DNA from: an uncultured Chloroflexia bacterium
GTDB lineage: Bacteria; Chloroflexota; Anaerolineae; Anaerolineales; UBA4823
NCBI GenBank assembly: GCA_963726315.1
Contig: CAVSBZ010000007.1
Coordinates: 450,435 to 514,434, forward strand
Reading direction: 5' to 3'
DNA length: 64,000 nt
Made by a program: the position numbers and the translations under genes. How positions within the stretch are numbered: the first letter of the stretch is position 1; the number at the start of each line of letters is the position of its first letter. The notes beneath the pieces are model-generated. The model was not told the origin of the DNA. It saw only the letters and a list, made by a program, of their open reading frames with translations, and searched no databases. This document shows positions 7,323 through 43,368 of this stretch, one piece after another.

Positions 7323-7323
7323 A

Positions 7324-8287: not shown

Positions 8288-8324
8288 GGTAAGTGAAGTT
8301 ATATACGCAGATTGACGTCTTGAC

Positions 8325-9980: not shown

Positions 9981-10098
9981 GGTTAGTGATGCCTGGATGA
10001 TACGTAATCAGATTGACAGGATGTAATATTGGCAGATGGTGAGGTGTAGCATGGGGAGACATCATTATCTTTAGGGCTATCAAACAATAACTAAGAGA

Positions 10099-10974
10099 TC
10101 AATCTTTCACCCGGCGCAGCTTGCGCAGGGAGGGGACTTCGCTATCATAGACGCGCTTGACTCCATCTCCCAATGCCTGCTCGGTGACACGGATATACTT
10201 AACCAGGCGTTCCATCCCACCGGGCTCGACCGAGGCTGCCTGGTCGCTGCCCCACATGGCTCTATCGAGGGTGATGTGCCGTTCAACCAGGCAGGCGCCC
10301 ATGGATACGGCAACGACGGTGGGGATCAAACCGACCTCGTGACCCGAATAGCCTATTGGGCAGGAAAATTCTTCCACGAGAGTGCGGATCATCTTCAGGT
10401 TCAACTCCTCAGGGTCACACGGGTAGGTGCTGGTAGCGTGGGTGATGAGCAGGTTATCCTCACCCAATATTTTTACTGCCGCCTTGATCTGGCGCATGGT
10501 GGACATGCCGGTTGAAAGGATGACCGGCTTGCCTGTGTTACGGGCATGCAACAAGAGGTTTTTATCGGTCAGAGAGGCGGAGGGAATTTTATAGCAGATG
10601 GGGTTGAACTGCTGCAGAAAATCAACCGAGGGTTCGTCCCAAACCGACGCAAACCAGGGAATATTCTTCTGCTGGCAGTAACGGTCAATTTCGCGGTATT
10701 CATTCAAGTCAAACTCAACCTTGTAACGATAATCCAGGTACGAGATATACCCCCAGGGCGTCTCGCGCATATGCTTCTGCTGGTCAGGCGGGACGCACAG
10801 CTCAGGGGTACGTTTTTGAAGCTTTACAGCATCGATGCCTGTTTTTGCAGCTACATCGATCAGCGATTTTGCAATATCAACACTGCCATTATGGTTAATG
10901 CCAATCTCAGCGACGATAAAAGTCGGGTAGCCCTCACCCACATTTCGATTACCGATCATAATTTCACGTGGCAT
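10099..10974 (-). CDS. NeuB-family ulosonic acid (9-phosphate?) synthase, TIM-barrel only, no SAF domain
   Basis: FIVAEIGINHNGSVDIAKSLIDVAAKTGIDAVKLQKR, IGYSGHE, ERHITLD are NeuB signatures. The 291-aa protein ends just before where the SAF/AFP-like domain would start. Confidence 0.8.
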   Translation of the reverse strand: MPREIMIGNRNVGEGYPTFIVAEIGINHNGSVDIAKSLIDVAAKTGIDAVKLQKRTPELCVPPDQQKHMRETPWGYISYLDYRYKVEFDLNEYREIDRYCQQKNIPWFASVWDEPSVDFLQQFNPICYKIPSASLTDKNLLLHARNTGKPVILSTGMSTMRQIKAAVKILGEDNLLITHATSTYPCDPEELNLKMIRTLVEEFSCPIGYSGHEVGLIPTVVAVSMGACLVERHITLDRAMWGSDQAASVEPGGMERLVKYIRVTEQALGDGVKRVYDSEVPSLRKLRRVKD

Positions 10975-11042
10975 AGTATTTCACCTTTCTGATCTATTTA
11001 TTTCCGGGAATAATGATTACTACGAACGAAAAAGAATGAAAT

Positions 11043-12254
11043 CTACCCCTGGTTGTTGAGAATACGGTCGCACAATTCCCTCACCGCACCACGGCCACCA
11101 GGGCGAGATAACACCACATCCGCCTGTGGGATCACATCTGGGTGGGCATCCGCGACGACGACTGCACAACCGACCAGCGGAAAGCACGATAAATCATTCA
11201 CGTCATTACCAAGGTAAACCACGTGGGCTGGGTCAAGCTGGCGTTCGAGAATCAGCCGCTTTAATGTGGTTGACTTATCGGACAAACCCTGGATAACGGG
11301 CAGGTTTAATTTTTGGCAGCGGGCAGCGACCACCGGGTTCGTCTCGGTGGAAAGGACAACCATGGGGATCCCTGCTTTATGAAGCATTCCAATCCCTAAT
11401 CCATCCCGGCGGTTGGCAGCAACCATTTCGTGCCCATCCTGGTCCACCCACACACGGTCATCGGTCATCACGCCATCAAAATCCAAAACCAGCAGATCGA
11501 CCTTCGGCGGCAAGGGTCGTTTACTGCTGCCTGGATGGACCATTGGCAGGTCACCCTGGGAGATGATCCATTCTGCAAGCTGCCAGTCGCGCAACGTGTC
11601 AATATCGATGGCATAACGAGGATCCATGTGCAGCGGCAGGATGACATCTCCACTCAACGAATTCTTTTTGAGGATGGTGGACACCCGTATAGCATCAATG
11701 TGACCGGTCTGCCAGTAGGTTTGGGGAAGCGCCTGGCGTGGGGCGTTATAGGGTTCATCCACACCAGGGAAGGCAAGTAAGGGAGACATGTGACCCTGGT
11801 CATCCATGCGCCACATTTTATAGGGGTTTTGACCAGATGGGATCACACCACGCATCGAATCAGCTTCGGGATGCTCGAGTAGGATCTGCAGCGCCTGGTC
11901 GACACAGTCGGGTGGGCGAAGCGGCGAGGTGGGTCGGAGCTGCACCACCACGTCTGGCTGATAGCCTTCTTTTTCTTTGAGCCAATGCAGGGCATGGGTG
12001 AAGACGGGCAGGTCGGTGGTGTCGTCGCGGGAAAACTCCTCCGGACGCAGGAAGGGGGCTTCAGCACCGAAGCTTTGTCCAGTACAGGCAATCTCATCAT
12101 CATCGGTCGATACGATGGTGCGAGTCACCTGCCTGGATTGCTGCGCCGCAGCAATCGAGTATGCCAGGAGCGGGTAGCCGGCGAGAGGCTTGATATTTTT
12201 GCGGGGAATGCTTTTGGAGCCTCCCCGAGCAGGGATTAGAGCAAGGATTTCCAT
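11043..12254 (-). CDS. Bifunctional CMP-ulosonic acid synthetase (N-term) / KdsC-type HAD phosphatase (C-term)
   Basis: N-term ILALIPARGGSKSIPRKNIKPLAGYPLLAYSI (NeuA-like). C-term LVLDFDGVMTDDRVWVD...VLSTE...YLGNDVNDL with intact HAD motifs I-IV of the KdsC/KDN-9-P phosphatase type. Confidence 0.8.
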   Translation of the reverse strand: MEILALIPARGGSKSIPRKNIKPLAGYPLLAYSIAAAQQSRQVTRTIVSTDDDEIACTGQSFGAEAPFLRPEEFSRDDTTDLPVFTHALHWLKEKEGYQPDVVVQLRPTSPLRPPDCVDQALQILLEHPEADSMRGVIPSGQNPYKMWRMDDQGHMSPLLAFPGVDEPYNAPRQALPQTYWQTGHIDAIRVSTILKKNSLSGDVILPLHMDPRYAIDIDTLRDWQLAEWIISQGDLPMVHPGSSKRPLPPKVDLLVLDFDGVMTDDRVWVDQDGHEMVAANRRDGLGIGMLHKAGIPMVVLSTETNPVVAARCQKLNLPVIQGLSDKSTTLKRLILERQLDPAHVVYLGNDVNDLSCFPLVGCAVVVADAHPDVIPQADVVLSRPGGRGAVRELCDRILNNQG

Positions 12255-12275
12255 GTGGGTCTATCCAATCGTTGA

Positions 12276-13130
12276 CTACCAGGCAGTCCAGCCACCATCG
12301 ACCACCAGGTTGGAACCGGTCATATAAGATGAGGCATCCGATGCCAGGAAAAGAATGGCGCCGTTCATCTCGTCTTTGTTCGCCATACGGCCCATAATGG
12401 TGCGGGCGGAGTAGGCTGTGAGGAATTCCTCATCGTGGTTATTGTAGATACCACCCGGAGTGAGGGCGTTGACGCGGATCTCGCTACCGGCATAGTAGGC
12501 GGAGAGATAGCGGGTGAGTCCCAACACACCGGCTTTGGTGACCGAATAATACACCGGCTTATAAGACGTTTGCAGACCACCACGCTGGTAGATGCGCTGA
12601 TCGGGAGCGACCAAACCATAAGTGGAGCATATATTGATAATGGAGCCTTTCTTTCCCTGGGCGAGCATCGGCTTGACGGCTGCCTGGCAGCACAGGAACA
12701 TACCGGTCAGGTTTACATCCAGGGCAGCTTTCCAGGCATCTAGCGGGTAGTCTTCGAAGGAACCGGAGAGTGCGCCGCGTTTTGCATTCGCCACCAGTGC
12801 ATCCGGGTCGAACTTGGGGTCTAGGGCAGCAGAGTTGACCAGGATATCCAACCGACCGAACGTCGCTAGGGTTTCAGCGACCAGGTTACGGACCGACTCA
12901 GGCTGCGTGACGTCGGTAGTGATCCCCAGGCAGTGGTAACCATCCTGGATCAATGAGGTGGCGAGGACATTGATGCCATCCGCATTAAGATCGGCAACGA
13001 CTACCGCAGCACCGGCTTCTGCGAGAGTACGGCAGAATTCCTTTCCCAGCAAGCCTGGTCCACCAGTGACGACGGCGACCCTACCTGAAAGGTCGAATTT
13101 TTGCAATACAGCATTCATTTGTATTCCCAT
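12276..13130 (-). CDS. SDR-family oxidoreductase
   Basis: VAVVTGGPGLLGKEF, NSAA, YSVTKAG catalytic pattern, 284 aa. Confidence 0.8.
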   Translation of the reverse strand: MGIQMNAVLQKFDLSGRVAVVTGGPGLLGKEFCRTLAEAGAAVVVADLNADGINVLATSLIQDGYHCLGITTDVTQPESVRNLVAETLATFGRLDILVNSAALDPKFDPDALVANAKRGALSGSFEDYPLDAWKAALDVNLTGMFLCCQAAVKPMLAQGKKGSIINICSTYGLVAPDQRIYQRGGLQTSYKPVYYSVTKAGVLGLTRYLSAYYAGSEIRVNALTPGGIYNNHDEEFLTAYSARTIMGRMANKDEMNGAILFLASDASSYMTGSNLVVDGGWTAW

Positions 13131-16812: not shown

Positions 16813-17691
16813 TTATGAGGTGACAATGGGTAACCAGGCGCGTTGAGGAGCAAGGCGCTCAACAATACGGCGGCGGAAGAACCCGAACTGGCGGTGGAAG
16901 TGCACCTGCCGATCGGGTTTGAATACATACTGAGTGCTGCTATCAGCTTGCGCCAGGAGGGTGAGATAGAGCGGGATGAGCTCCGAACGAGGCTGCCCGT
17001 GGGCTCGTAGCTGGGTAACCCGGTAGCCAGCTTTCTGCACTACCTGGGTGAGTGTGTGTGTGCTGAAGGAGGTGAGGTGAGCCACTTCGAAGCAATCATG
17101 AGCGTACAGGTTGGGCACTTCCAGGAGCAGCCAGCTATCAGGTTCAAGTAAGCTGGTACGCAGGTTTTGAAGATACCCGACCGGATCTGGCAGATGCTCC
17201 AACACATGCATCATGCTCACAAGGTTGAAAGGCGGATGACCTGCGTTTTGAAGCTCATCCAGTGAGGCATAGACCTCCAGCCCCAGGGAGCGGGCATATT
17301 GGCGGTAAACTGTTCCCGGTTCAACCCCAACAGCCTCAGCCTGATAGCGGGCTTGAAATTGCTGCAATAAGATACCGGTCGAGCAGCCAACATCCAGGAT
17401 GCGGGCAGCCGAGCTAACCCACGGAGTGATAAATTCCAGCGATACTTTGGCACGGTCAGACTGCACTGACAGGTCTTTCGGGTTGGGACCTTCCTGCCCC
17501 TGGTACAGCAGGCGGTATTCGGCCTCGTAAAATGCCTGGCTTTCTGCTTCGGTCATGCGCGGCGTTTGGTAGACCAGCCCACAGCTGCGGCAAATGTTGT
17601 TGATCACCGGTTGACCGCGGAATTCGCGCCGGTCAAACAGTGCACTCGCGTTTGCCCCACAAAGAGGGCAGGGGACAACGATCTCAGTCAT
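16813..17691 (-). CDS. Class I SAM-dependent methyltransferase with N-terminal CxxC..CxxC zinc ribbon
   Basis: MTEIVVPCPLCGANAS...CRSCGLVYQTP then ILDVGCSTGILL SAM motif. The track ORF extends to 17889, but that extension is low-complexity and overlaps the upstream gene, so the start is set at ATG 17691. Confidence 0.8.
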   Translation of the reverse strand: MTEIVVPCPLCGANASALFDRREFRGQPVINNICRSCGLVYQTPRMTEAESQAFYEAEYRLLYQGQEGPNPKDLSVQSDRAKVSLEFITPWVSSAARILDVGCSTGILLQQFQARYQAEAVGVEPGTVYRQYARSLGLEVYASLDELQNAGHPPFNLVSMMHVLEHLPDPVGYLQNLRTSLLEPDSWLLLEVPNLYAHDCFEVAHLTSFSTHTLTQVVQKAGYRVTQLRAHGQPRSELIPLYLTLLAQADSSTQYVFKPDRQVHFHRQFGFFRRRIVERLAPQRAWLPIVTS

Positions 17692-18637
17692 CAGCCGCTC
17701 GAAGTTGACCAAGCTTATAGGCAGCCCGCCCGCGGAATTCCTTCCAGGCTTTAACGGGGTGGAAAACCGAGAAGAACAGGTGGGCAAATGCCATCGAGTG
17801 GAACTTGACCAGGGGGAAAATCTCTGTCTCACGCAGCAGCTTTTGGGAACGCAGAGGGATTTTTTGGAGCCTGTCATTCCCCAGGGCATAATCAGCGTCC
17901 TGCAGCGTGAATACGGTGCGACGACCGCCGGCTAAACGCAGGTTCTCGGACGATTCGGGGAGCCGGTAATGAGGCTGACCATTGGGGAGGTGTGAGTAGT
18001 CGTGATCCTGGTGGATGACCGGGATAGATGCACTCGCGTCGATGACTGGCATATGCTGTATGCGGGCGTGGTAGATCATCCAGTTGTCCCATCCGGCACG
18101 ACCAATGGCGAAGCCTGGCAGGTCGGTGAAACATGAACGCGGGAAAATAAAATAATCACTGCCGGCAGGGGGGTGCAGGCGTCCACGTGATTTTAAATCC
18201 TCAAGGAGGCGTAAATCCCAACCGGATGTAAATTCGAGCGGCTCCTTGATTTCCAAGTCATAACGCTGACCGACGATGAGGAACAGTTTTTCCTGACAGT
18301 AAACCTGGCTGGCAGCTGTAACGAATTGGGGAGTGAGCAGGATATCGGCATTGACATATGCCAGCAAGGGGGAGGTGCTAATCTGCCGTGCCGCAGCGAA
18401 AATTGAGCTAACCAGTGGTGTACCGGATTGATTTCTGGCGACCTCCGGCAGGTATTGAATGTCTGTTTCGGCAGAAAACTCTGCCACGCCAGGCTCATCC
18501 CCGATCATTACCACATTCACCTCGTCTCCCAGGTTCTGCCAGGAAAAGATGGCGTTGCGCTGGATCAGGTTAATATGCGGGTGGGTGAAGGGCTTGGGAG
18601 CGGTAAAAATGGTGATGAAAGGATCGGGAGAAGCCAT
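17684..18637 (-). CDS. Uncharacterised GT-A-like protein (putative glycosyltransferase)
   Basis: MASPDPFITIFTAPKPFTHPHINLIQRNAIFSWQNL...LLAYVNADILL. No family is confidently recognised. Start chosen 4 nt after the upstream stop; the track extension to 18874 is rejected. Confidence 0.4.
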   Translation of the reverse strand: MASPDPFITIFTAPKPFTHPHINLIQRNAIFSWQNLGDEVNVVMIGDEPGVAEFSAETDIQYLPEVARNQSGTPLVSSIFAAARQISTSPLLAYVNADILLTPQFVTAASQVYCQEKLFLIVGQRYDLEIKEPLEFTSGWDLRLLEDLKSRGRLHPPAGSDYFIFPRSCFTDLPGFAIGRAGWDNWMIYHARIQHMPVIDASASIPVIHQDHDYSHLPNGQPHYRLPESSENLRLAGGRRTVFTLQDADYALGNDRLQKIPLRSQKLLRETEIFPLVKFHSMAFAHLFFSVFHPVKAWKEFRGRAAYKLGQLRAADD

Positions 18638-18641
18638 TGAA

Positions 18642-19532
18642 TTAGACGCCTGAATTGCGCTGGTCGACATCAAAAGCAGATTTATGCGGAACGGCTGCAT
18701 TGATGAAGCCCAGCTCGGGTTCCATCTGCAAGAGAGAAAGAACCTCCTGCCAGCTGAAAAGCTCGAATGAATCAAAGTGAGAATAGACCTGGCGCACGAA
18801 TTCGAGATCTGCCGGGGTATCCACCGTCCAGCGCAGGGAACCAAGGTCAGGAATGTGGTTGAGCAAGGCAACATGGAAGCCGAGAGGAGTGGTAGCTTGC
18901 TCCCTATACCACACCGCTTCGGGTGGCACGTCAGGCTGGGGGAACGAGATGCCCTGATAGATGTAAGGCATCACATGCTCACGCTGGAAACCCTGGTCAG
19001 CTTCCTTCCAGGCGCGTTCCAGGGCTTCGAAGGAACATACTTCAACATCCAGACCGATTGGGAGCGTCCGGCGCCAGGGTGGGGGTAATCGATTGGCAGA
19101 AAAATCATTTGGATATGTAGTCAGAGATGGAGTATCAGCTTTCTGGTAAGAAATTGCTGATGCCTGCTTTATAGATTTGCCAAGAAACGTATCAACCGTC
19201 AGATCCAACACATCTGGATCGAGGAGCGGGCAATCGGCTGTCAAGCGGATGATTGCATCGGCGTTGTACTGCACTGAGGCGCGATAGAAGCGGTCCAGCA
19301 CATCGTGGAGGCTACCTCGCCAGCAAGGGATACCCTTGATGAGGCAGTATTGCTCCAAGACGTCATCCGAGGGATCGGTGGTGGTGGCAATCACGATGCC
19401 ATCAACCGACCTGGCTTTCATCGCCCGCGCAACAACGTGCTCGAGCATTGGACGCCCGCCGATATCCATCAAGACCTTCCCCGGCAGGCGGGAAGAAGAC
19501 ATACGAGCCTGGATAATAGCTAGTTTATTCAT
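18642..19532 (-). CDS. SpsF-type cytidylyltransferase (CMP-ulosonic acid synthetase family)
   Basis: MNKLAIIQARMSSSRLPGKVLMDIGGRPMLEHVVARA is the characteristic SpsF/CTP_transf_3 N-terminus; 296 aa. Confidence 0.7.
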   Translation of the reverse strand: MNKLAIIQARMSSSRLPGKVLMDIGGRPMLEHVVARAMKARSVDGIVIATTTDPSDDVLEQYCLIKGIPCWRGSLHDVLDRFYRASVQYNADAIIRLTADCPLLDPDVLDLTVDTFLGKSIKQASAISYQKADTPSLTTYPNDFSANRLPPPWRRTLPIGLDVEVCSFEALERAWKEADQGFQREHVMPYIYQGISFPQPDVPPEAVWYREQATTPLGFHVALLNHIPDLGSLRWTVDTPADLEFVRQVYSHFDSFELFSWQEVLSLLQMEPELGFINAAVPHKSAFDVDQRNSGV

Positions 19533-19544: not shown

Positions 19545-20084
19545 TTACTGGGCAAATTCTGAAATGGAAGGGATTGATTTGGTGCGAGCCACAAACCACC
19601 AAACTGAAATTCCCACCAGGGCGCCACCGATCAGTGCAATTGGAAGCCACTCGATTACCTGGTTGAGGATGATTTTTTGAAATGCAGAACTCCACGCCTG
19701 CCAGAAACCGGCTTGCTTGGGCCCCTGAATGAGCAGATATTCCATATTTGGCAATCCCCATAAAGCCAGGAGCAACAGATAGAAAATGTAATAACCGGCG
19801 ATTGAGCAAACCCAACACAAGGCTCCTGCCAGTGCTGACCGGGAGGCTGAGCGCGAAGCGCGGCTTTCATAGAATGTGACCGGTAAGACAGGAACCAACC
19901 AGATGCCATAGTTCAACAGGATGATGATGGGTATGACGATGGGGTTATTTTGCAGCTTCCCCCAGGAGAGCTGCGCCAAGAAATTCAGATAGTACCAGTC
20001 GGCAATACCGAACAAGAACCCAACCAATGAATAAATCAACCAACGTTTTTTCCCATGCACAGCTTTATCTACTCCAAAAACCAA
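19545..20084 (-). CDS. Small integral membrane protein, unknown function
   Basis: 179 aa with 4-5 hydrophobic helices and no recognisable motif. TTG start in the track; GTG at 20060 (MHGKKRW...) is an alternative. Confidence 0.45.
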   Translation of the reverse strand: MVFGVDKAVHGKKRWLIYSLVGFLFGIADWYYLNFLAQLSWGKLQNNPIVIPIIILLNYGIWLVPVLPVTFYESRASRSASRSALAGALCWVCSIAGYYIFYLLLLALWGLPNMEYLLIQGPKQAGFWQAWSSAFQKIILNQVIEWLPIALIGGALVGISVWWFVARTKSIPSISEFAQ

Positions 20085-20364: not shown

Positions 20365-21462
20365 TCAGATGTTTTGTTTTATTGCGATGGAATAGGCTTT
20401 TTCCAGCTGGGGGAAATTTTTTCCCCAATCGGCACGGGCTTCAGCAATCCGGCGTGCTTTGTTTCCCATCTCGGTGAGGTCTTCCCGATGCTCAAGAGCA
20501 TATAAGATCGCTGCGGCAAGGGCTTCAGCATCACCGTCGGGGAACAACCAACCATTCTCACCCGGGGTGACCCATTCCCGGTTGCCAGGAATATCGGGGA
20601 CAATCGCCGGGGCTGCTGTAGCAAAAGCTTCCAATAAGGAAATCGAAGTGCCATCACTATGGGAGGCGCTGAGATATAAATCTGTGGTCTGATAGTAAGC
20701 AGGCAGGTCTGCAAAGGATACCTGACCTGGGAAAATGACTCTATCGTAAACGCCGCCGACTAATAAAATCTGCCGAATGGGGGCTAACTGGGAGCCACCG
20801 CCTAAAAGGGTGAGGTGAAGCTCTGGGCGTTTCCGAGCGGCGATAACGAAAGCCCGGGCGATCACATCGATACCATAAATTGGTTCCCAGCTGCGAGTGG
20901 AGAGCAGGTTAAAGCTTGAAGTATTTACATCTTTACAGGACGAAACGGTAAAGTGAGTAAGGTCGATGCCCCAGGGGAAGGTCACGATGCGCTCATCAGG
21001 CATGCCATAGGAGACTGCCAGCTTGCGGATAGTGTCGCAATCGCCAACGAAAGCATCGCTGTGATACAAGGTATATCTCGTCGCCAGGTTCCAGAACGGA
21101 TTGATATTGGCATCGTGCAGCAGGTCATAACCCCATGACGCGCTAACCAGGGGGTGAAAATCAGCCAGGGCAGCTAAAAGGGCGCAACGCTGAATGGGAC
21201 CAGCGTGAATTAAGTCGGGTTTGACTCGACGGATGACTTCACGCAGGCTCTCGAGCAAGCGAAAACCATCTTTCAACCTGGCAGGCTGGCTGCCTCCCGC
21301 CCATTGGACTGATTCAATCCCTGGTGGGAGAGGACGGTCTTCGAGGGTTTGTTTTCCTCCTTCCAGGCGTAAATAAAACACCTGGTTGTCTGTATTCGAC
21401 AGGGCAGTGAGGAAGCGATGGTCGTGGGTGGTGTAATCGCGGGAAAAATAGATGATCCGCAT
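20365..21462 (-). CDS. Family 4 (GT-B) glycosyltransferase
   Basis: DGTSISLLEAFATAAPAIVPDIPGNREWV..GENGWLF is the E-x7-E-type GT4 C-terminal signature; 365 aa. Confidence 0.85.
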   Translation of the reverse strand: MRIIYFSRDYTTHDHRFLTALSNTDNQVFYLRLEGGKQTLEDRPLPPGIESVQWAGGSQPARLKDGFRLLESLREVIRRVKPDLIHAGPIQRCALLAALADFHPLVSASWGYDLLHDANINPFWNLATRYTLYHSDAFVGDCDTIRKLAVSYGMPDERIVTFPWGIDLTHFTVSSCKDVNTSSFNLLSTRSWEPIYGIDVIARAFVIAARKRPELHLTLLGGGSQLAPIRQILLVGGVYDRVIFPGQVSFADLPAYYQTTDLYLSASHSDGTSISLLEAFATAAPAIVPDIPGNREWVTPGENGWLFPDGDAEALAAAILYALEHREDLTEMGNKARRIAEARADWGKNFPQLEKAYSIAIKQNI

Positions 21463-21469: not shown

Positions 21470-21916
21470 TTATAAGCGATTATTTATCGCCTGGCTGAGA
21501 CGTTGAATCAACAGTTTATCGCGTTCATAGTCGAACACCATTGCATCCATTTCGGATTGAGGATGCGACCAGGGAAGACCTTTTCGATAAATCTCTGGTT
21601 CGGTCATGTAGCGGGGGACAATATGGGCGTGCAGGTACGGATCCAAATTGCCAGCGATGGCGTAATTTATTCGATATGCACCGGTAACTTCTAATAGAGC
21701 GTCTCCAACCACTGACATGTCACATAAGAATTCTGCCCGTTCTGCCTGGCTCAGATCATTCAAGCTGGATACAACCGGGTCTGCCAGTAAGATACAGTAT
21801 CCGCTGAGAAATTGTAAGTCGCACAGCACAACCCAACCTGAAGGTACCCGGCAGATGACGGTCGGGTTGGTTCCTGCTCGGGCGGTTTCAACGCGTTGGG
21901 GAATCGGGATGGGCAT
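21470..21916 (-). CDS. HIT-superfamily protein (nucleotide hydrolase/transferase)
   Basis: DPYLHAHIVPRY aligns with the HIT motif H-x-H-x-H-x-x, with the second and third His retained and the first replaced by Tyr; 148 aa. Confidence 0.55.
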   Translation of the reverse strand: MPIPIPQRVETARAGTNPTVICRVPSGWVVLCDLQFLSGYCILLADPVVSSLNDLSQAERAEFLCDMSVVGDALLEVTGAYRINYAIAGNLDPYLHAHIVPRYMTEPEIYRKGLPWSHPQSEMDAMVFDYERDKLLIQRLSQAINNRL

Positions 21917-21918
21917 GC

Positions 21919-22986
21919 TTATTCTCCCAAACCGGTCCAGCGAAGCTCTTTCCCCAACGGCATGTCTGATAATGCGCGTTTACCGATCACTGAGCCGATC
22001 TCATCCGGCTTAATGGCACCGGGAGTAGCAGGGCGGAGCACGTCGATCATTTCACGCGTGAATACTTCTCCGGCTTTGATATCACGGGCGGCACGCAGGC
22101 AGCGGCGCTGAATGACGGCTGTGTCGACCTCATTGCCGGCGACGAACTTGTCGGGGCTGCCCAGGCTGCGCTCCAAAATTCTAGTCTCCTCGACCATTGC
22201 CGCCCAATTGCGGGGGTCCATAGCAAACTTATGGTCAGGACCTTGGCGGTCATTGCTGTCAGTGAAATGACGTTCGATGACCTGGGCGCCCAGCGTCACT
22301 GCCGCTAAAACGGGTGCGACGGCATGGGTGTGGTCGGAAAGACCCAGGATCACATCAGGGAACAGGGTGGCATAGGTTTTGAGCACGTTGATGTGAAGGT
22401 GATCGTAGTTATCTGGGCTGGCAGTGTAATTTGTGTTGCACTGCATCAGCACAAGCTGAGGGTTGATCTTGAGAACAGCATGAATTGCCCGCTGGACTTC
22501 GCCGATATCGGAGGCACCGGTGGCAATAAAAAAAGGCTTGCCCTTGGATGCCATGCGCTCGAGAGCTTCGATCCAATCGATCTCCCCTGAACCGGCTTTA
22601 TACATTTCGACGTACGGGTCGAGCATATCGATGGTTTCGAAATCATACGGCGCAGAAAAGAAATCAATTCCCACCTGGTCGCATGCCTGTTTCAACACCG
22701 GAGTCCACTCAAATGGGATGGAGGCTTCGGAATATACCTGGAAAACCGACTTCTTCCAGGCGGCCTGGTGGGAAATCTGCCCATCCATGTGGGTGAAGCC
22801 GTAGTCTGAAACGATGTGCGGAGCGCGGAAGTTTTGGAACTTGGCTGCGTCTGCTCCGGCTTCCTTAGCGAGGCGGATAAGCATTTTGGCGCGCTCAAGG
22901 TCTCCATCATGGTTGGCAGCAATATCCGCGATGAAATAGGTGGGGTGACCTGGTCCGATGATATGAGTGCCGATCCGAATTTGCAT
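21919..22986 (-). CDS. NeuB/PseI/LegI-type nonulosonic acid synthase with C-terminal SAF domain
   Basis: YFIADIAANHDGDLERAKMLIRLAKEAGADAAKFQNF, LGLSDHT, ERHFT, and SAF-like RAARDIKAGEVFTREMIDVLRP. Confidence 0.85.
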   Translation of the reverse strand: MQIRIGTHIIGPGHPTYFIADIAANHDGDLERAKMLIRLAKEAGADAAKFQNFRAPHIVSDYGFTHMDGQISHQAAWKKSVFQVYSEASIPFEWTPVLKQACDQVGIDFFSAPYDFETIDMLDPYVEMYKAGSGEIDWIEALERMASKGKPFFIATGASDIGEVQRAIHAVLKINPQLVLMQCNTNYTASPDNYDHLHINVLKTYATLFPDVILGLSDHTHAVAPVLAAVTLGAQVIERHFTDSNDRQGPDHKFAMDPRNWAAMVEETRILERSLGSPDKFVAGNEVDTAVIQRRCLRAARDIKAGEVFTREMIDVLRPATPGAIKPDEIGSVIGKRALSDMPLGKELRWTGLGE

Positions 22987-23021
22987 GGTTTTCTCCGGGC
23001 TAGCATGGACAGGGAAAAATA

Positions 23022-23939
23022 TTAGCTTGTTCCCAGGCTGCGCAGCATGTGTGGATAACCCTGTTGATAAAGCTTGAATAACTTATCCAAACCTGTGGAT
23101 ACCCTGGGGAGAGATTTACCCAATTCATGCGCAAGCTTGTCAGAGCGCAGCGAGAGGTTAGGCGAGCGAACCGCTTTCAATCCCGCCTTTGCAATGGAAG
23201 TTGGGTTGATCAAACTGGTATCCAGGTCAAAGCGGTGGGCGAGACGGATACCAAAATCATACTTGCTCAGGGATTCGGAGCTTACCACGTGATACAGACC
23301 ACTAAGACCCCTCTCCAGCATCCTGACGAAAATATCTGCCAGGTCGTTGGCAAGCAGGGGGCAAAAGCACACATCGGTGAAACCCATTACCTGGTTTCCC
23401 TGGCTCAAGTTATTGAAGAAAAATTCTGCCAGGCTGCGGTTGCCGCTTTGGGACCAACCAAACAGATTAACCCGGGCGATGATAGCTGTTGGGTCTGCTT
23501 CGGCAACGGCTAATTCACCGTCCAGCTTGGTGCGGGAATACACACCCACAGGCGTGGGGCTATCTTCCTCGCTGTAGTTACCTAGCCATCCATCGAATAC
23601 TGAATCGGTGGAGACGTGAACCAGGCGCGCTCCGCTCCTGGCGACATGACTTGCCAGTGTGCGGGGGAGGTCGGTATTCAGCTGCTGCGCCAGGAGGGGG
23701 TCAGCCTCACAGGCATCTAAATTTGCCAATGCGGCACAGTGGATGACCCAGTCGGGTTGAGCCAGATCGAGCAGGCGCTCCACTGCGCCAGGAACCAGAA
23801 GGTCGGTCTGGATCACCTCGAAGGCATCGGTTTTTATGACATGCTGGCTGACCGTACCAAAAACCGTGTGCCGGGAGGTGGTTTCCAGTGCCAGGTTGAG
23901 ACCCAGCAAACCACTGGCTCCGGTGATGAGGATGCGCAT
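23022..23939 (-). CDS. RmlD-like NAD(P)H sugar 4-ketoreductase (RmlD_sub_bind family)
   Basis: MRILITGASGLLG, HCAA, STDSVFDG, YSRTKLDGE catalytic Y-x3-K; 305 aa. Confidence 0.75.
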   Translation of the reverse strand: MRILITGASGLLGLNLALETTSRHTVFGTVSQHVIKTDAFEVIQTDLLVPGAVERLLDLAQPDWVIHCAALANLDACEADPLLAQQLNTDLPRTLASHVARSGARLVHVSTDSVFDGWLGNYSEEDSPTPVGVYSRTKLDGELAVAEADPTAIIARVNLFGWSQSGNRSLAEFFFNNLSQGNQVMGFTDVCFCPLLANDLADIFVRMLERGLSGLYHVVSSESLSKYDFGIRLAHRFDLDTSLINPTSIAKAGLKAVRSPNLSLRSDKLAHELGKSLPRVSTGLDKLFKLYQQGYPHMLRSLGTS

Positions 23940-23944
23940 ATCAC

Positions 23945-24955
23945 CTATTCTTCAACATAACCATTTACCTGGCGACCTTCGAAGGGCGCCACCATGTCAT
24001 GGATTTGATCGACGCTTAACCACTGCGGGTTGTTATCACTTCCGAAGCGGAAACCAACGGGTAAACCCTGCCCTTCAGACTGCCAATCGTGACCGAACCA
24101 GGCGTTTGGGCTGGGCTGGACAACATACATATGTTCCATCTCTACTGCGGAGCGAGATTCATCTTCAGAGATCAATACTTCATGAAGCTTCTCACCAGGT
24201 CGGATGCCCACCACTTCCAGCCTTGCCGCAGGAGCGATGGCTTTCGCCAGATCAATGATCTTCATGCTTGGAATCTTGGGCACAAATACTTCGCCTCCGT
24301 GCATTTGTTCAATGCAGCTGATGACGAAACGAACTCCCTGGTCGAGGGTGAGCCAGAAGCGGGTCATACGATCATCGGTGACGGTGAGCTTGCCTGTAGA
24401 CCTCTGCTGCAGAAAGATAGGCACCACGCTACCGCGCGAGCCAACCACATTACCGTAGCGGACGCAGCTGAAACGGGTCGCCATCCCACCTGCGTAGGAA
24501 TTGCTCTGGATGATCAGTTTTTCGGCGGCCAGCTTGGTGGCACCATAAAGGTTTATCGGATTGACCGCTTTATCTGTGCTGAGGGCAAGGACTTTCTTGA
24601 CACCTGCGTCAAGGGCTGCCTCGACCACATTGCTGCTACCCAGGATATTGGTCTTGATGGCTTCCATCGGGTTGTATTCACAGGCAGGCACCTGCTTGAG
24701 AGCAGCCGCGTGGACCACAACGTCCACGCCGTGCATGGCACGGCGCAGGCGTTCGATGTCGCGCACATCCCCGATAAAATACCGCAGGGAGGGATGATCG
24801 AAACCAGCCACGCGCATTTCATGCTGTTTGAGCTCGTCGCGGCTGAACACGATCAGCTTGGCGGGATGGTATTCCTTCAGCATCGTCTCGATATATTTTT
24901 TACCAAAAGACCCGGTTCCACCAGTGACGAGGATGACTTGTTCGGTCCAGTTCAT
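23945..24955 (-). CDS. pseB: UDP-N-acetylglucosamine 4,6-dehydratase, PseB/FlaA1-type
   Basis: ILVTGGTGSFGKKY, SRDELKQHEM, FIGDVRD, VRYGNVVGSRGSVVPIF, MTRFWLTL, VFVPKIPSMKIIDLA, GIRPGEKLHE are colinear with FlaA1/PseB. Start set at ATG 24955 (MNWTEQ). Confidence 0.8.
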   Translation of the reverse strand: MNWTEQVILVTGGTGSFGKKYIETMLKEYHPAKLIVFSRDELKQHEMRVAGFDHPSLRYFIGDVRDIERLRRAMHGVDVVVHAAALKQVPACEYNPMEAIKTNILGSSNVVEAALDAGVKKVLALSTDKAVNPINLYGATKLAAEKLIIQSNSYAGGMATRFSCVRYGNVVGSRGSVVPIFLQQRSTGKLTVTDDRMTRFWLTLDQGVRFVISCIEQMHGGEVFVPKIPSMKIIDLAKAIAPAARLEVVGIRPGEKLHEVLISEDESRSAVEMEHMYVVQPSPNAWFGHDWQSEGQGLPVGFRFGSDNNPQWLSVDQIHDMVAPFEGRQVNGYVEE

Positions 24956-24986: not shown

Positions 24987-25850
24987 TCATTTTTCCTTGC
25001 CCATCTCGACCAGCGGGTACTGCCCATACCTGCCTAGAAAGTGTGGGAAAAGTTCTTCCAGTGCGTAGATCAGCTTGAGCAGGAATTTTCCAGCGAAGCG
25101 TTCATGGATAAACGTGCGCAGGAAGCGCACGTTAACGCTCCGCCAGCAGTATACATTAATCGGCATCAGGCTGCCAACTTCCTTGTTGAGCCAGGCTGCA
25201 TTTTCTTTGCGTACATATGTGCCGCGTCGTTCTGCTTGATCTGCTGATGGATGGATTACCTGGTCGGGGTTGGTAGACCTGGTCTGGGGTCGAGTGATTG
25301 CGTATAGCCGTTCAGTCAGCATAATCCAAAAGTTCAGGAAGATCGTAAGTGGAGGGTTATCCCAGCCGTTGACAATCACGCCCTTGCCACTCGCGGCCAG
25401 AGTGCGCTGCAGCTCACCATAGGCACGCACATGATCGACGGGAGGCAGATGGTGCAGGGTGTGAAGCGATACCAGACCGTCAAACACATCCGATTTAAAG
25501 GGAAGGTTGGCAACATCGCAAACCACATATAAGCCATGGCTGCCAAGGCGTTTACGGGCTTCCTGCAAGGCTACGATGGAGATGTCAGCACAAATCCGGC
25601 GTTGGTAGCCCCTGGAATATTCAAGGTATTCCGGGTACTGGATTGGTCCGCAGCCGGCATCGAGCAGGTAGCGCCCCAAGGGGTTCAAATGGCGCAGCAC
25701 ACGCAGGTGGCAGTTATGGATGTACTCATGCGAGACAGGACGCAGGTCTTCATAAGAGGCATTCTGGTAGAAACCATCGCTCTCGGTCTGCCAGCCAACC
25801 CGGTCATAAAATTCGCGCACCTGGTGCTTGATTTCAGCGTCTGGGATCAT
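24987..25850 (-). CDS. Class I SAM-dependent methyltransferase
   Basis: YLLDAGCGPIQ SAM motif I and FDGLVSLHTLHHLP motif. Confidence 0.75.
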   Translation of the reverse strand: MIPDAEIKHQVREFYDRVGWQTESDGFYQNASYEDLRPVSHEYIHNCHLRVLRHLNPLGRYLLDAGCGPIQYPEYLEYSRGYQRRICADISIVALQEARKRLGSHGLYVVCDVANLPFKSDVFDGLVSLHTLHHLPPVDHVRAYGELQRTLAASGKGVIVNGWDNPPLTIFLNFWIMLTERLYAITRPQTRSTNPDQVIHPSADQAERRGTYVRKENAAWLNKEVGSLMPINVYCWRSVNVRFLRTFIHERFAGKFLLKLIYALEELFPHFLGRYGQYPLVEMGKEK

Positions 25851-25853: not shown

Positions 25854-27465
25854 TCACCAATGGACAGGCTCGCCGACCAGGTAGCGAAAGGTCTGCTGAT
25901 AGGTAGCTAGTCCTTCATTGCTCAGCAAGCGCGACAACGGCCAGGTTTCCAGATCTTTCCAGAAGTGGACCAGGTGCCAGGGGAAGGGGTGCGGATACTC
26001 GAAGAAGAAGCGGTATGCATAATTCCAGGCTTGTGCCACCTGTACCTGGGATAGGCGAAATGAGCCAGGGTTTGCCAGGACGTTGGAAAGCAGCTCAAAA
26101 TAAGCTTCCCAGCTTGAGGGGTCCAGGGTAAACCCTTTGTCGCGGTAGTGGGTGTTGCCAACGACGATTACCGGTACACCAGTCATCGCCATTTCCATGC
26201 CCACCGTGGTGGTGTAGACCAAACCCAGGTCGGCGATCTCCACAACATCGTAGGTGTTCACCTTGGCATCTGCGGGTACCAGGTGGATGTTTTCAGGGAT
26301 TGAAGGTAATGCCTGGTGAACAACATCCGCGACGGAAGGTCCTTTGGTGATCAATTCTCCCGGATGGATGCGGACAACCAGCTGAACTTCCGGGTGACCG
26401 GCAAAAAAGCGCACTGTACGCTCAAGCCAATCGGTCATCGAATCACTAAAAACTTGCCGACCTAAAGTAAGGCTGTCACCGATCACGTTGGTTGCCAGCA
26501 GGATGATCGGGCGGTGGTCTAAGGATAGCGCCTGGCGCACCTGCTCGCCACCTTCAGAAGGCACTCCCTGCCATCGGCGGGCAAAGTTTTCCCACAGGCT
26601 GGCTCGTTGACGGGAGGTAAATAGGTTTACCACCTGGTCTTTCTGCTCAGGGGTCAAGGGCTGTTCCTGACGTGCATGCCATAATTGTGCGGTGTCCTGG
26701 CGCATGACCTCCGCATTCTGAGCCAGCCAGATGCGGTCACACTGCTCGCCGAATTCATAGGTGACGGTTGGGATGCCCAGATAACGCGCCAGCTGGTAGA
26801 TCACCCCAAATTCAAGGATGGTCCCATTGGGGAGGATGACTGAGATCAGGTCTATGACTTTCAAGGTAGGAAAAGGCAGCACCAGCCGCTGCCAGGTTGC
26901 GCTGAAAGCGCAGCTTATACAGGTCACTATCCAGGCTGACCTGTTCCACCTGGAGGGTATATTGGGTATCGCGCAAGGATACCAGCTCAACAGCCTGCTG
27001 CAGATCGGTTGGCAGATGCGGAGCCTTTGATTGGCTTAATAGTGGCACGATTTTTAGCAGGGGTGAAGCTTTCGTCAGGACGTTCTCGGTGTATATATTT
27101 TGACGCCGCAGGTTGAATGCCTCAATCGGCTTCTGCCAGCGGGCATAAGGCAGATAGGAAAGGCTAACGGAATGTCCCAAGCCCGCTAATGACATCCCCA
27201 AAAGCGTGGCGTGCTCGAGCCAGTAACGCAGGGTAGCGAAAATAAAGATGTTCTTAGCAGGTGAATCGGATGAACGGCTGCCAGATGCATAAACCTCAGA
27301 CGCCAACACCTGGGAGCGCCACTCCGGGATGGAAGCTTCCAGTCGGTCGAGGGTAAATTCAGCCGTCACGGGCTTACCCGGCTGGCGCAGGTACCAGTAC
27401 GCTTCGGCGGTAAGCGGGATTTGACCCAGTATCGACATGAGGTCTTGCTTACTGACCATTCTCAT
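25854..27465 (-). pseudogene. KpsS/KpsC-like (Capsule_synth-like) glycosyltransferase, paralog of 8325..9980, split by a +1 frame disruption near 26838..26845
   Basis: The N-part (track ORF 26812..27465) ends ...AAFSYLESHRPDL then goes out of frame. The C-part continues in the +1 frame as VILPNGTILEFGV...LLATNVIGDS...LVVRIHPGE...VYTTTVGMEMAMTGVPVIVVGNTHY. The junction parallels LLDNTSPQAVVLFNGQFFPEA in the paralog. The start ATG overlaps the wzt1 stop (ATGA). Confidence 0.6.
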
Positions 27466-28745
27466 AGGCGCTCAATCGTCCATTCCAAAGCCGGTCGAAT
27501 GGCACCCATACGGGGCTCAGGCCACTGCTTACCTGGGGCTCCGGTGGCATCGACGGTGAACGCCAGAGAGTGGTCATCCCAAAAATAGCGTTTGATGCGG
27601 AAGCTGCTGGCATTGACTGCCAGAACGTAGCGACCTTCATTCAGTATATCGGCTGGGATGGTACAGCGGCTGGTGTAATGACCGGTTGTTCGTACACCTT
27701 GTTGCTCGAACTGATGGGGGTCATCCAGGTCAAAGGAAGTGAACACATACTCACCACGCATCGTGAGGAGATAAATCCCGACACGTAAACCTGTTATGGA
27801 TTGGTCCAACCGGTACTCGATCTCGATAGTGAATGGCTCGGTTGAGCGTAAGGTATCAACCACGCGTGAGTTCTTGTCACGCAGGCGCAGCGCAATGGGA
27901 GCGAATGGAGCAGCATCTGCGGGGATTTCGGCGGAGGTCCAGATACGCTCCCCTGAGCCGGTGAAACCCGCGGCCATGTAATAATCCACCGCTTGAGGGG
28001 TGGGGGCGCGGTAGACCATGAGGCCTTTATCCAACACCATGGTCTCTTCGGTGAGGCGCAGTACGGCCGACATATTATGGCTCACGAAAAGCACGGTGCG
28101 CCCTGCCTGGGCAACGTCAGTCATCTTGCCCATGCATTTTCGCTGGAACTCGGCATCACCCACCGCAAGCACCTCGTCCACTACCAGTATCTCGGGTTCC
28201 AGGTGGGCTGCCACCGCAAAGGCGAGGCGAAGGTACATGCCGCTTGAATAGCGCTTGACGGGTGTGTCGATGAACTGCTCCACTTCAGAGAAAGCGACGA
28301 TTTCATCGAACTTTCGCTCGATCTCCAGGCGCTTCATCCCCAGGATGGCGCCGTTCAGGTAGATATTCTCACGCCCAGTCAGCTCGGGATGAAAACCGGT
28401 GCCTACTTCCAATAAAGAGCCAACCCGCCCGTGGATTTCGGCGTTGCCTTCAGTGGGCTCGGTAACGCGTGACAGGATTTTGAGCAGCGTGCTCTTCCCT
28501 GCGCCATTCCGTCCAACGATGCCAAGCACCTTACCCCGCTGGACTTCGAAGGAGATATCGCGAAGTGCCCAAATCGAGCTGGTTTCGGTAGAGGTGGAGG
28601 TGACTGCGGAACCGCGCCGCAACCGCTGGAAAGGCGCGTTGACTCCTGCGGCGATGGTATCGCGCAGGGTTTTATAGCGCTCGGGGGCAGTCCCGATGCG
28701 GTAGCGCTTGCCAAGATCTTCAACGCGGATAGCAATATCATTCAT
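27462..28745 (-). CDS. wzt: Polysaccharide ABC exporter ATP-binding protein (Wzt/TagH-like) with C-terminal extension
   Basis: GIVGRNGAGKSTLLKIL Walker A, YSSGMYLRLAFA signature, LVVDEVLAVGD Walker B, followed by about 180 extra residues (Wzt_C-like beta-rich sequence). Confidence 0.85.
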   Translation of the reverse strand: MNDIAIRVEDLGKRYRIGTAPERYKTLRDTIAAGVNAPFQRLRRGSAVTSTSTETSSIWALRDISFEVQRGKVLGIVGRNGAGKSTLLKILSRVTEPTEGNAEIHGRVGSLLEVGTGFHPELTGRENIYLNGAILGMKRLEIERKFDEIVAFSEVEQFIDTPVKRYSSGMYLRLAFAVAAHLEPEILVVDEVLAVGDAEFQRKCMGKMTDVAQAGRTVLFVSHNMSAVLRLTEETMVLDKGLMVYRAPTPQAVDYYMAAGFTGSGERIWTSAEIPADAAPFAPIALRLRDKNSRVVDTLRSTEPFTIEIEYRLDQSITGLRVGIYLLTMRGEYVFTSFDLDDPHQFEQQGVRTTGHYTSRCTIPADILNEGRYVLAVNASSFRIKRYFWDDHSLAFTVDATGAPGKQWPEPRMGAIRPALEWTIERL

Positions 28746-28787: not shown

Positions 28788-29660
28788 CTAGATCTCATCA
28801 GCGAAGGTCCGTTCCATATTGCGGAAGTAAACCAACCCGGTGATGAGCAGGATCACAGCAACTCCTGCTGAGACGGCAGTCACCTGCCATGGCAGGCCGT
28901 GGATGCCCAACAGACTCCAACGGAAACCTTCGACCACGCTGGTGAGGGGGTTGAGAGCATATAATATTTGCCATTTACCTGATACAGCCGAGGCAGAATA
29001 AACGATCGGGGTGAGGAAGAACCAGATTTGGGTCAAAAACGGGAGGATATGACCCACATCGCGGTAGATCACATTCATGGCTGATAACCACAGGCTGACA
29101 CCCAGGGTGGCGACCAGCGCCAGGAGGATGAATAGAGGCAAAGTGAGGATTGCTGGGGTGATCTGGTAGGTGTAGGTGGAGCTGGGTGCAAAATTATAGT
29201 ACAGGATGATCAAGATGTATACGATGAAGCCAATACCGAAATCTACCATGCCGGCCAGGACGGAAGCCACAGGGATGGTCAGGCGGGGAAAATAGATCTT
29301 GGTGATCATATTGCGGTTGGTTACCAGAGAGCGTCCGGCGTCATTCATCGCCTTGGAGAACAACCCCCAGGGTAAAAGTGCGGTGAAGTTGAAGATGGGA
29401 TAAGGCACGCCTTCTGAAGAAAAACCTGCGGCATTGGAAAAGATTAAGGTAAACACAACCATCTGGACGACGGGTTGGATCACTGCCCAGGCGGCACCTA
29501 ACACGGTCTGTTTATAGCGCACCAGGACATCGCGCCAGGTGAGGAAAAGAACCAGCTCACGGTAAACCCAGAGATCGCGCAGGTTCAATGCGGCCAGACC
29601 GTGCGTGGGTCGCAGGTAGGTCACATCTGAGCAGGGTTTGGAGAGCGGGTTGGTAGCCAT
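28788..29660 (-). CDS. wzm: ABC-2 type polysaccharide exporter permease (Wzm/TagG-like)
   Basis: LWVYRELVLFLTWRDVLVRYKQTVLGAAWAVIQP is the typical ABC-2 N-terminal motif; 6 TM pattern. Start set at ATG 29660 (MATNPL), after the fcl stop. Confidence 0.8.
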   Translation of the reverse strand: MATNPLSKPCSDVTYLRPTHGLAALNLRDLWVYRELVLFLTWRDVLVRYKQTVLGAAWAVIQPVVQMVVFTLIFSNAAGFSSEGVPYPIFNFTALLPWGLFSKAMNDAGRSLVTNRNMITKIYFPRLTIPVASVLAGMVDFGIGFIVYILIILYYNFAPSSTYTYQITPAILTLPLFILLALVATLGVSLWLSAMNVIYRDVGHILPFLTQIWFFLTPIVYSASAVSGKWQILYALNPLTSVVEGFRWSLLGIHGLPWQVTAVSAGVAVILLITGLVYFRNMERTFADEI

Positions 29661-29670
29661 GGATGAGCGA

Positions 29671-30633
29671 TTAGACCTTCCGGTTTTCCCGGTACCAGGC
29701 GATCGTCCGGCGTAAACCTTCTTCAAAATTTACGCTTGCGCGCCAACCGAAATATTCAGCTGCACGACTGGTATCCAAGGCACGGCGAGGCTGCCCGTTC
29801 GGCTTGGTGGTATCCCATACCAACCGGCCTTCATAACCGGTCAGGTGGGTAATCAGCTCTGCCAGGTGTTTGATACTGATCTCTTGCCCGGAACCGATAT
29901 TGACCGGCTCACTGCCATCATAAAATTCAGAGGCAGATAGAATCCCTTCTGCCGCGTCGCCAACGTAGATGAACTCACGGGTTGGGGACCCATCTCCCCA
30001 CAACACAACTTCCTTGTCGCCACGCTCCTGCGCTTCGATGCATTTCCGCACCAGGGCAGGGATGACGTGGGAAGTCTCGAGGTTGAAATTGTCCCCGGGT
30101 CCATATAGATTGACTGGTAGCAGGTAGATGGCATTGAAACCGTACTGTTGGCGGTAAGCTTGAGCCTGGACGAGGAGCATTTTCTTTGCCAGCCCGTACG
30201 GAGCGTTGGTTTCCTCTGGGTAACCATCCCATAAATTTTCTTCCTTGAAAGGAACGGGGGTGAACTTGGGGTAGGCACAGACCGTGCCGATGGCAACGAA
30301 CTTGGATACCCCGCGCTTCCAGGCTTCGTGCATCAGCTGCACACCCATCATCAGGTTAATATAGAAAAAATCGGCTGGTCTCGCCCGGTTGGCACCAATC
30401 CCCCCTGCCAGGGCCGCCAGGTGGATGAGCAGGTCTGGCTGGGCAACATCCAGCATCCGTTGGATATCAGCGGGATTAACCAGGTCGTATTCTTCAATCC
30501 GGGGAACAAAGATATCCGTGGCTCCACGCTGTGCTAGTGCTTTGAGAATGAAGGAGCCTAAGAAACCTGCCCCACCAGTGACGCAAATGCGTTTATTATG
30601 CCAGAACTTTGGATCAGATTGATACGCCATCAT
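29671..30633 (-). CDS. fcl: GDP-L-fucose synthase (GDP-4-keto-6-deoxymannose 3,5-epimerase/4-reductase)
   Basis: [51 protein letters not shown] are patterns typical of Fcl/WcaG. Confidence 0.8.
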
Positions 30634-43364: not shown

Positions 43365-43368
43365 TTTC

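Follow-up and report, generated by a model that had tools for sequence, protein, structure and literature searches.

Which sugar can be produced by a glycan locus that encodes a pseudaminic acid-type dehydratase and a nonulosonic acid synthase, and no aminotransferase? This question is raised by a stretch of 64,000 nucleotides (hereafter the window) from an uncultured Chloroflexia bacterium of the order Anaerolineales (assembly GCA_963726315.1, contig CAVSBZ010000007.1, positions 450,435 to 514,434), in which consecutive genes encode a PseB-type dehydratase, an RmlD-family reductase, a NeuB-type synthase (NeuB1) and a small HIT-fold protein. The reading favored here, to which we give about an even chance, is that this module would make and use a cytidine monophosphate (CMP)-activated 5-acetamido-3,5,9-trideoxy-non-2-ulosonic acid, the 7-hydroxy analogue of pseudaminic/fusaminic acid, for a glycan exported by an ATP-binding cassette (ABC) transporter.

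The four genes had been proposed in a first-pass annotation, and profile searches, together with structural evidence for the HIT fold, recovered all of them at the same coordinates on the minus strand, an orientation shared by the approximately 53 genes of the window. PseB (23945..24955; Polysacc_synt_2, E 3.6e-102), assigned as an inverting uridine diphosphate (UDP)-N-acetylglucosamine (GlcNAc) 4,6-dehydratase, is encoded in an open reading frame (ORF) that spans 25027-23945 and probably starts at the Met at 24955; its orthologs are 330-336 amino acids long. With 493 bits against an NCBIfam equivalog cutoff of 407.75 (TIGR03589) this protein is a PseB equivalog, whereas the FnlA/WbvB model stays far below its cutoff (251 vs 730). 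The reductase that comes next (23022..23939; RmlD_sub_bind, E 9.8e-56), a predicted NAD(P)H-dependent 4-ketoreductase, carries the GASGLLG and YxxxK motifs and has MAT2B and archaeal and bacterial RmlD proteins as its closest solved relatives; its score lies under the RmlD equivalog cutoff (TIGR01214, 175 vs 224 bits). RmlA, RmlB and RmlC partners are not present in the cassette, the sole RmlC of the window being located at its far edge (1-534). NeuB1 (21919..22986) combines a NeuB domain (PF03102, E 2.1e-65) with a SAF domain (PF08666, E 6.9e-10), and the HIT gene (21470..21916, 148 amino acids) closes the series, with intergenic gaps of 5, 35 and 2 nt between the four genes. Directly 3' of HIT, 7 nt apart, lies a gene absent from the first-pass annotation, which encodes a GT4 protein of the GT-B fold (20365..21462, minus strand; Glycos_transf_1, E 4e-27), either a transferase or a candidate UDP-sugar hydrolase. 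The cytidylyltransferase previously noticed downstream was also found (CT1, 18642..19532, minus strand; CTP_transf_3, E 2.7e-32) and is a putative CMP-ulosonic-acid synthetase.

The synthase and the cytidylyltransferase can be assigned by their profiles at the level of the family alone (NeuB and CTP_transf_3, respectively). NeuB1 scores below both equivalog cutoffs (NeuB, 255 vs 400 bits; PseI, 234.5 vs 340.25) and CT1 below that of PseF (23 vs 205.7). NeuB1 is about equidistant from SpsE, Campylobacter jejuni PseI and Neisseria meningitidis NeuB (NmNeuB), and forms a clade of its own with mixed diagnostic residues: metal- and phosphoenolpyruvate (PEP)-binding residues of NmNeuB are matched in the alignment by the Lys in KFQ and by the His residues in SDHT and ERHFT, the motif KAGSGE has the Gly of Neu- and Leg-type synthases at the position occupied by Phe in PseI, and a Thr is found at NmNeuB position 184, where PseI has Ser. 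The Phe of PseI has been linked to substrates of L-altro configuration, in relation to the configuration at C2 (PMC7371886). The substrate preference of NeuB1 cannot be read from its sequence.

The absence of an aminotransferase, of PseH and of PseG from the 64 kb, claimed in the first-pass annotation, was borne out. When the 53 major ORFs of the window were all scanned with Pfam, no DegT_DnrJ_EryC1 protein, no Glyco_tran_28-type PseG and no Epimerase_2 (NeuC/LegG) came up, and the lysine motif of DegT proteins, sought in six-frame translation with two unrelated flanking genes in the related loci L079 and L149 as positive controls, had no match in the window. The sole GNAT protein (60200-59697) is encoded beside tsaB and tsaE and therefore looks like RimI, so that no PseH was found among the 53 ORFs. 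Among 163 loci DegT-like motifs were present in just two, L079 and L149, in both cases outside the cassette, and in approximately 110 cluster-bearing loci no aminotransferase was tied to the cassette, the nearest DegT protein being that of L149, 9 kb away.

Comparative analysis was based on 80 loci centered on NeuB1 (73-94% NeuB1 identity) and 80 centered on HIT, taken among the matches listed in species-representative genomes, all of them Chloroflexota, and the window proteins were mapped onto both sets. Across 80 related Anaerolineae genomes, Candidatus Villigracilis metagenome-assembled genomes included, the core is Wzm-Wzt-KpsC-like-methyltransferase-PseB-RmlD-like-NeuB-GT4-cytidylyltransferase-GT-A protein, and the first three long contigs inspected show the same order as the window. 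In the NeuB1-centered set the reductase was detected in 76 of the 80 loci, PseB and GT4 in 72 each and CT1, always after GT4, in 61. The reductase begins within 150 bp after PseB in 67 of 72 loci, and GT4 follows NeuB1 in all 72 loci with downstream sequence. Because the order PseB-reductase-NeuB1-GT4-CT1 is kept in every one of the 58 loci that hold all five genes, the cassette is a real unit, a widely conserved variant of nonulosonic acid locus in Anaerolineae that lacks an aminotransferase. The co-occurrence of PseB, RmlD, NeuB and HIT, which the first-pass annotation had named as a check, holds for the first three proteins (58/58 loci, in order) and not for HIT, which is found within 10 kb in just 4 of 80 loci.

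Several genes are inserted in relatives at three gaps of the cassette, namely the one that separates the methyltransferase gene MT1 from PseB, the reductase-NeuB1 gap and the GT4-CT1 gap. These include extra methyltransferases, a sulfotransferase, GDPD, M20, DUF4260 and PMT_2 proteins, EcoRV, an AAC(3)-like N-acetyltransferase and M28/DUF4910 proteins; considered as candidates for the missing steps, none is an aminotransferase. In 34-39 loci, approximately half (e.g., L098, 12228-14390), the GT4-CT1 gap contains the AAC(3)-like N-acetyltransferase (Antibiotic_NAT) together with a DUF4910/DUF2172/Peptidase_M28 protein, both absent from the window; these two may represent a de-N-acetylation/re-acylation pair acting on the amino group of the sugar. 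A D12-class DNA methyltransferase is encoded in the GT4-CT1 gap of L118 and an EcoRV-type restriction enzyme in the MT1-PseB gap of L154.

Given a core without aminotransferase and a reductase welded to PseB, the simplest pathway is one of 4,6-dehydration accompanied by inversion at C5, reduction at C4, release of the 6-deoxy-L-hexosamine, condensation with PEP and activation with CMP. PseB, in agreement with its family assignment, would convert UDP-GlcNAc to UDP-2-acetamido-2,6-dideoxy-L-arabino-hexos-4-ulose, and the RmlD-like enzyme would reduce C4 to give UDP-6-deoxy-L-AltNAc (AltNAc, 2-acetamido-2-deoxyaltrose) or its 4-epimer. The idea of the first-pass annotation that the keto intermediate is reduced rather than transaminated therefore remains as the most economical reading, considering the lack of an aminotransferase in approximately 110 loci; its other half, the HIT protein as the enzyme that removes UDP, does not, as discussed below. 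For the release of UDP the best candidate may be GT4, the sole universally conserved protein with a nucleotide-sugar-binding fold adjoining NeuB1; this speculation is built on analogy, as the known hydrolases PseG and NeuC are GT-B proteins. NeuB1 would then condense the freed sugar with PEP and CT1 would make the CMP-sugar, which a KpsC-family protein may transfer to the glycan; the methyltransferase MT1 may methylate it, and Wzm/Wzt would be responsible for export.

This proposal is weakened by several observations. Every enzymatic step is deduced from family membership. No UDP-releasing enzyme of the PseG or NeuC type was recognized in the core, and the GT4 profile matches ordinary GT4 transferases alone (PimA, BshA, PglA), not PseG. 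The survey of missing enzymes covers the 64-kb window, and an unlinked aminotransferase, PseH or PseG may be encoded elsewhere in the genome. In addition, NeuB1 has Gly in place of the PseI Phe that is tied to L-altro substrates (PMC7371886).

A precedent for the predicted chemistry exists in the O-chain of Fusobacterium nucleatum ATCC 25586, which contains 2-acetamido-2,6-dideoxy-L-altrose (6-deoxy-L-AltNAc) together with fusaminic acid, 5-acetimidoylamino-3,5,9-trideoxy-L-glycero-L-gluco-non-2-ulosonic acid (PMC7371886, PMC13014188). Fusaminic acid is of the sugar class predicted here, a 7-hydroxy, 9-deoxy nonulosonic acid with a single amino group, and is accompanied by the 6-deoxy-L-hexosamine that PseB and a 4-reductase would give, although the likeness is chemical only and there may be differences in stereochemistry at C4 and in the N-acyl group. 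In consequence, the statement of the first-pass annotation that the product falls outside the known nonulosonic acids needs qualifying, since the 3,5,9-trideoxy class is already represented by fusaminic acid. For fusaminic acid and 6-deoxy-L-AltNAc the searchable literature yielded structures only, with no published biosynthetic pathway or genes, and likewise structures only for nonulosonic acids in Chloroflexi. The cassette is probably the genetic basis of a sugar of the fusaminic/7-hydroxy type.

When compared with characterized systems, the cassette resembles the pseudaminic acid pathway (PseB-PseC-PseH-PseG-PseI-PseF) in having a PseB equivalog in first place, a NeuB-family synthase with SAF domain and a CTP_transf_3 protein in one operon-like unit, and differs from it in lacking PseC, PseH and PseG, in the RmlD-family reductase that comes after PseB, and in a synthase and a cytidylyltransferase that remain below the PseI and PseF cutoffs. 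With the WbvB/WbvR/WbvD and FnlA/B/C routes to UDP-2-acetamido-2,6-dideoxy-L-hexoses it shares a Polysacc_synt_2 dehydratase followed by a 4-reductase, which in the case of WbvR is reportedly also of the RmlD family. In contrast to these routes, the dehydratase scores as PseB and not as FnlA/WbvB, no 2-epimerase (Epimerase_2) is present in the window, and NeuB and a cytidylyltransferase are added within a conserved gene order.

This last comparison leads to the strongest competing explanation, which is considered unlikely although it deserves more weight than the others. According to it, and in line with the more conservative hypothesis of the first-pass annotation, PseB and the reductase make a UDP-6-deoxy-L-N-acetylhexosamine (HexNAc) that serves as donor for GT4 or for the GT-A protein encoded after CT1 (unkB), while NeuB1 and CT1 make a separate ulosonic acid, the sugar for which would come from genes located elsewhere. 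GT4 resembles an ordinary GT4 transferase and unkB an ordinary GT-A transferase, no hydrolase would be required in the core, the glycan of F. nucleatum contains 6-deoxy-L-AltNAc as a residue in its own right, and the Gly of NeuB1 at the PseI Phe position resembles that of synthases that use manno-configured substrates. However, NeuB1 would depend on an unlinked supply of its sugar, considering that no NeuC, N-acetylmannosamine epimerase or phosphatase is encoded in the core, and the window already contains a second synthase (NeuB2) and a cytidylyltransferase-HAD set suited to a phosphosugar route. The strict order PseB-reductase-NeuB1 in 58 of 58 loci also argues for coupling.

As to the HIT protein, the Pfam model gives a weak match that misses the threshold (E 0.031), and the assignment comes from solved HIT proteins (phmmer; 2oik, 1e-8, and 3i4s, 8e-7) and from the predicted structure (predicted local distance difference test score, pLDDT, 80), whose top Foldseek matches are all HIT proteins, namely 2oik, 3i4s, Fhit and the diadenosine tetraphosphate (Ap4A) phosphorylase Rv2613c. 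In the motif YLHAHIVPRY the middle His, which is the nucleophile, and the third His are kept and invariant in the family, whereas a Tyr takes the place of the first triad His. The structural-genomics proteins 2oik, 3i4s, 3ohe, 3nrd and 3i24, as well as Fhit and Rv2613c, have in common with it the HIT fold and a His-x-His-x-x motif that ends in PR, and in 3i4s and 3ohe the first triad His is replaced too; the close structural relatives are proteins without known substrate, share at most approximately 25% identity and are not known to be linked to nucleotide sugars. Judged from the predicted structure, the nearest characterized relatives are Fhit and Ap4A phosphorylase and not GalT-type nucleotide-sugar enzymes, and the searches against Pfam, NCBIfam and PDB and with Foldseek gave no GalT-type match.

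Close homologs of HIT number more than 2,000, nearly all of them from Anaerolineales metagenomes. In the NeuB1-centered set just 3 of 72 cassettes have HIT placed between NeuB1 and GT4, and in the closest relatives devoid of HIT (L085 and L086, 88-89% NeuB identity) NeuB joins GT4 directly. Elsewhere the NeuB1-GT4 junction shows direct abutment, a four-helix-bundle gene (approximately 12 loci), which we take to be of the 23S rRNA intervening-sequence type, a PIN/antitoxin pair, a GxxExxY gene or membrane proteins (other small genes in L094, L097, L102, L103, L108, L109, L114, L116, L117, L122, L132, and L149); it is an insertion hot spot that in other genomes carries selfish genes. In the HIT-centered set, 31 of 80 orthologs are located in the glycan cluster vs roughly 1% expected by position alone; 21 of these touch NeuB1, and others occupy the reductase-NeuB1 gap, precede the methyltransferase or are located further downstream. 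The remaining 49 have unrelated contexts (e.g., LepA-LPG_synthase_TM-HIT-cation efflux or DinB-DinB-HIT-ammonium transporter), and in a neighbor-joining tree linked orthologs are scattered among unlinked ones. Members of the family with 50-60% identity were also detected in Rhizobium/Agrobacterium, Maritalea, Truepera, Akkermansiaceae, Armatimonadota and Sporobacter, where these genes have no NeuB or PseB neighbor and are named "HIT family protein" or generic Ap4A hydrolase; such strong conservation between phyla speaks for a common substrate and against a rare UDP-6-deoxy-hexosamine. At least four genomes (DYPU01, CAYQDU01, DAOUAP01, and JBBRWF01) have the cassette and encode HIT on another contig.

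Two further protein types occur in the same setting. A canonical PF01230 HIT of another lineage, with HYHLHVIPRY and an N-terminal CPFC, is encoded between reductase and NeuB1 in L107, L115, L121, and L126, followed in L107 and L115 by a GDPD phosphodiesterase gene that occupies the same gap also in L103, L119, and L158. In three genomes (L003, 4281-4805; L009; L011/L089) a NUDIX hydrolase gene separates the methyltransferase from PseB, and all three also have the HIT of the window type.

Based on this distribution, a role of HIT as core pathway enzyme was rejected (4/80 cassettes; family present in phyla without the cassette), and the opposite idea, that of a pure chance passenger, was not adopted either, taking into account the 31 orthologs found in the cluster at several positions and the recurrence there of a second HIT lineage and NUDIX. 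Since the link with the cluster is above chance and is echoed by the canonical HIT and NUDIX, yet rare in cassettes, HIT is likely an accessory enzyme, a nucleotide hydrolase or phosphorylase that is in some way connected functionally to the glycan system, and not a replacement of PseG. The protein looks catalytically competent, seems to have joined the cluster in a minority of lineages and would not be required by the pathway, in which it may serve to trim or to recycle an intermediate linked to a nucleotide.

These results make it very improbable that HIT replaces PseG and takes the nucleotide off UDP-6-deoxy-HexNAc, as the first-pass annotation had suggested. In favor of this proposal can be counted the intact catalytic His-x-His, the position of the gene at 2 nt from NeuB1 and 7 nt from GT4, the enrichment of the orthologs in the cluster and next to NeuB1, and the canonical HIT and NUDIX proteins of other cassettes. 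Nevertheless, approximately 95% of the cassettes lack HIT, the junction at which it resides is a hot spot for insertions, linked and unlinked orthologs are mixed in the tree with 49 of 80 in unrelated contexts, the family is well conserved in phyla without the cassette, and the nearest folds are those of Fhit and Ap4A phosphorylase. Furthermore, as is generally known for this superfamily, HIT chemistry would yield uridine monophosphate and a sugar-1-phosphate, so that a phosphatase would still be required before the aldol condensation. A related scenario, in which HIT, the canonical HIT and NUDIX were recruited independently to cleave UDP-6-deoxy-L-HexNAc in a PseG-independent, HIT-dependent release of the hexosamine, is held to be just as improbable; if true, it would be the first genetic route to 3,5,9-trideoxy nonulosonic acids of the fusaminic type. 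The HIT gene is a case in which operon adjacency alone led to misassignment.

Finally, a canonical diamino pathway to a pseudaminic acid-like sugar, with aminotransferase, acetyltransferase and hydrolase encoded elsewhere and the reductase serving another sugar, would agree with the full PseB equivalog, with the fact that the DNA searched represents 64 kb of a contig of approximately 1.03 Mb, and with the AAC(3)-like N-acetyltransferase and M28/DUF4910 proteins of about half of the related cassettes, but is hardly probable in view of the lack of DegT proteins within 10 kb in approximately 110 loci other than L149, the reductase welded to PseB, and a NeuB1 that fails the PseI cutoff and has no PseI Phe.

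The remaining genes of the module, all on the minus strand, are consistent with the export of a glycan. Upstream of PseB are encoded Wzm, the ABC-2 permease of a glycan exporter (28788..29726; ABC2_membrane, E 2.4e-19; in 45/80 related loci), the Wzt ATPase with a C-terminal carbohydrate-binding domain (27462..28745; ABC_tran, E 1.9e-21; Wzt_C, E 7e-10), a KpsC/KpsS-family protein, unkA, which is a putative CMP-ulosonic-acid transferase (25854..27465), and the S-adenosylmethionine-dependent methyltransferase MT1 (24987..25850; Methyltransf_11, E 5.2e-14; in 60/80 related loci). A 1-nt insertion near 26841 interrupts unkA in the window, which is either the mark of a pseudogene or an indel error of the assembly, while the gene is a single ORF of approximately 537 amino acids in 54 of 54 relatives; its orthologs match Pfam Capsule_synth (28.8 and 30.6 bits, cutoff 20), and a weak match to the KpsC structure 6mgd was also obtained. 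The possibility that unkA is a hidden NeuC was discarded, Epimerase_2 reaching just E 0.2 while the orthologs pass the Capsule_synth cutoff.

Downstream of GT4, a lineage-specific small membrane ORF of 179 amino acids without family match (19545..20084) is present solely in the closest relative (L004/L084), and CT1 is followed by unkB (17684..18640, 317 amino acids) and then by a second methyltransferase gene. The longest ORFs of these two genes (17684-18874 and 16813-17889) overlap their upstream neighbors by 230 and 205 nt, and ortholog alignment indicated later starts, near 18640 and at approximately 17690, respectively. No Pfam or PDB sequence match was obtained for unkB, and its AlphaFold model (pLDDT 85.6) matched 6p61, SpsA (1qg8), K4CP and TarP in Foldseek, suggesting a GT-A, SpsA-like, glycosyltransferase-like protein. 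When unkB was considered as a hidden PseG, PseH or aminotransferase, this fold spoke neither for nor against a hydrolase role. As in the ABC-dependent glycans capped with ulosonic acids (KpsC/KpsS and WbbB-type transferases of beta-Kdo, 3-deoxy-D-manno-oct-2-ulosonic acid), the locus combines Wzm, Wzt with Wzt_C, a Capsule_synth protein, a methyltransferase and a CMP-ulosonate pathway; here, in a Chloroflexota host, the predicted residue is a C9 nonulosonic acid and not Kdo, and would have the role of a chain cap.

Two other glycan regions were detected in the window. A second ulosonic-acid gene set at 4046-13130 includes, all on the minus strand, NeuB2, without SAF domain (10974-10099), a CTP_transf_3-HAD phosphatase fusion (12254-11043), a short-chain dehydrogenase/reductase (SDR; 13130-12276), a Capsule_synth KpsC/S-like protein (9980-8325) and a third cytidylyltransferase (7322-6645), in addition to a 2-hydroxyacid dehydrogenase, another SDR and an MptE-like protein. 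NeuB2 and the two further cytidylyltransferases were absent from the first-pass annotation, and this set suggests a route of the Kdn-9-P or Neu5Ac-9-P type and possibly a third activated sugar. A second Wzm/Wzt pair with Wzt_C is located at 39097-44208, beside a methyltransferase-GT2-GT4 fusion of 987 amino acids and two more glycosyltransferase fusions; accordingly, the window appears to encode two ABC-transporter-dependent glycans.

Fusaminic acid is the sole 3,5,9-trideoxy nonulosonic acid described, and the cassette represents a testable candidate for that chemistry. If the proposed pathway is confirmed, it would bring out the question of what enzyme takes the place of PseG, and surveys of nonulosonic acids would have a specific mass species to seek, C11H19NO8 (about 293.11 Da, one oxygen less than Neu5Ac). 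Likewise, the pathway would extend by a reductive branch the biosynthetic scheme of the Pse, Leg and Neu sugars, a family of molecules that shape recognition at the cell surface.

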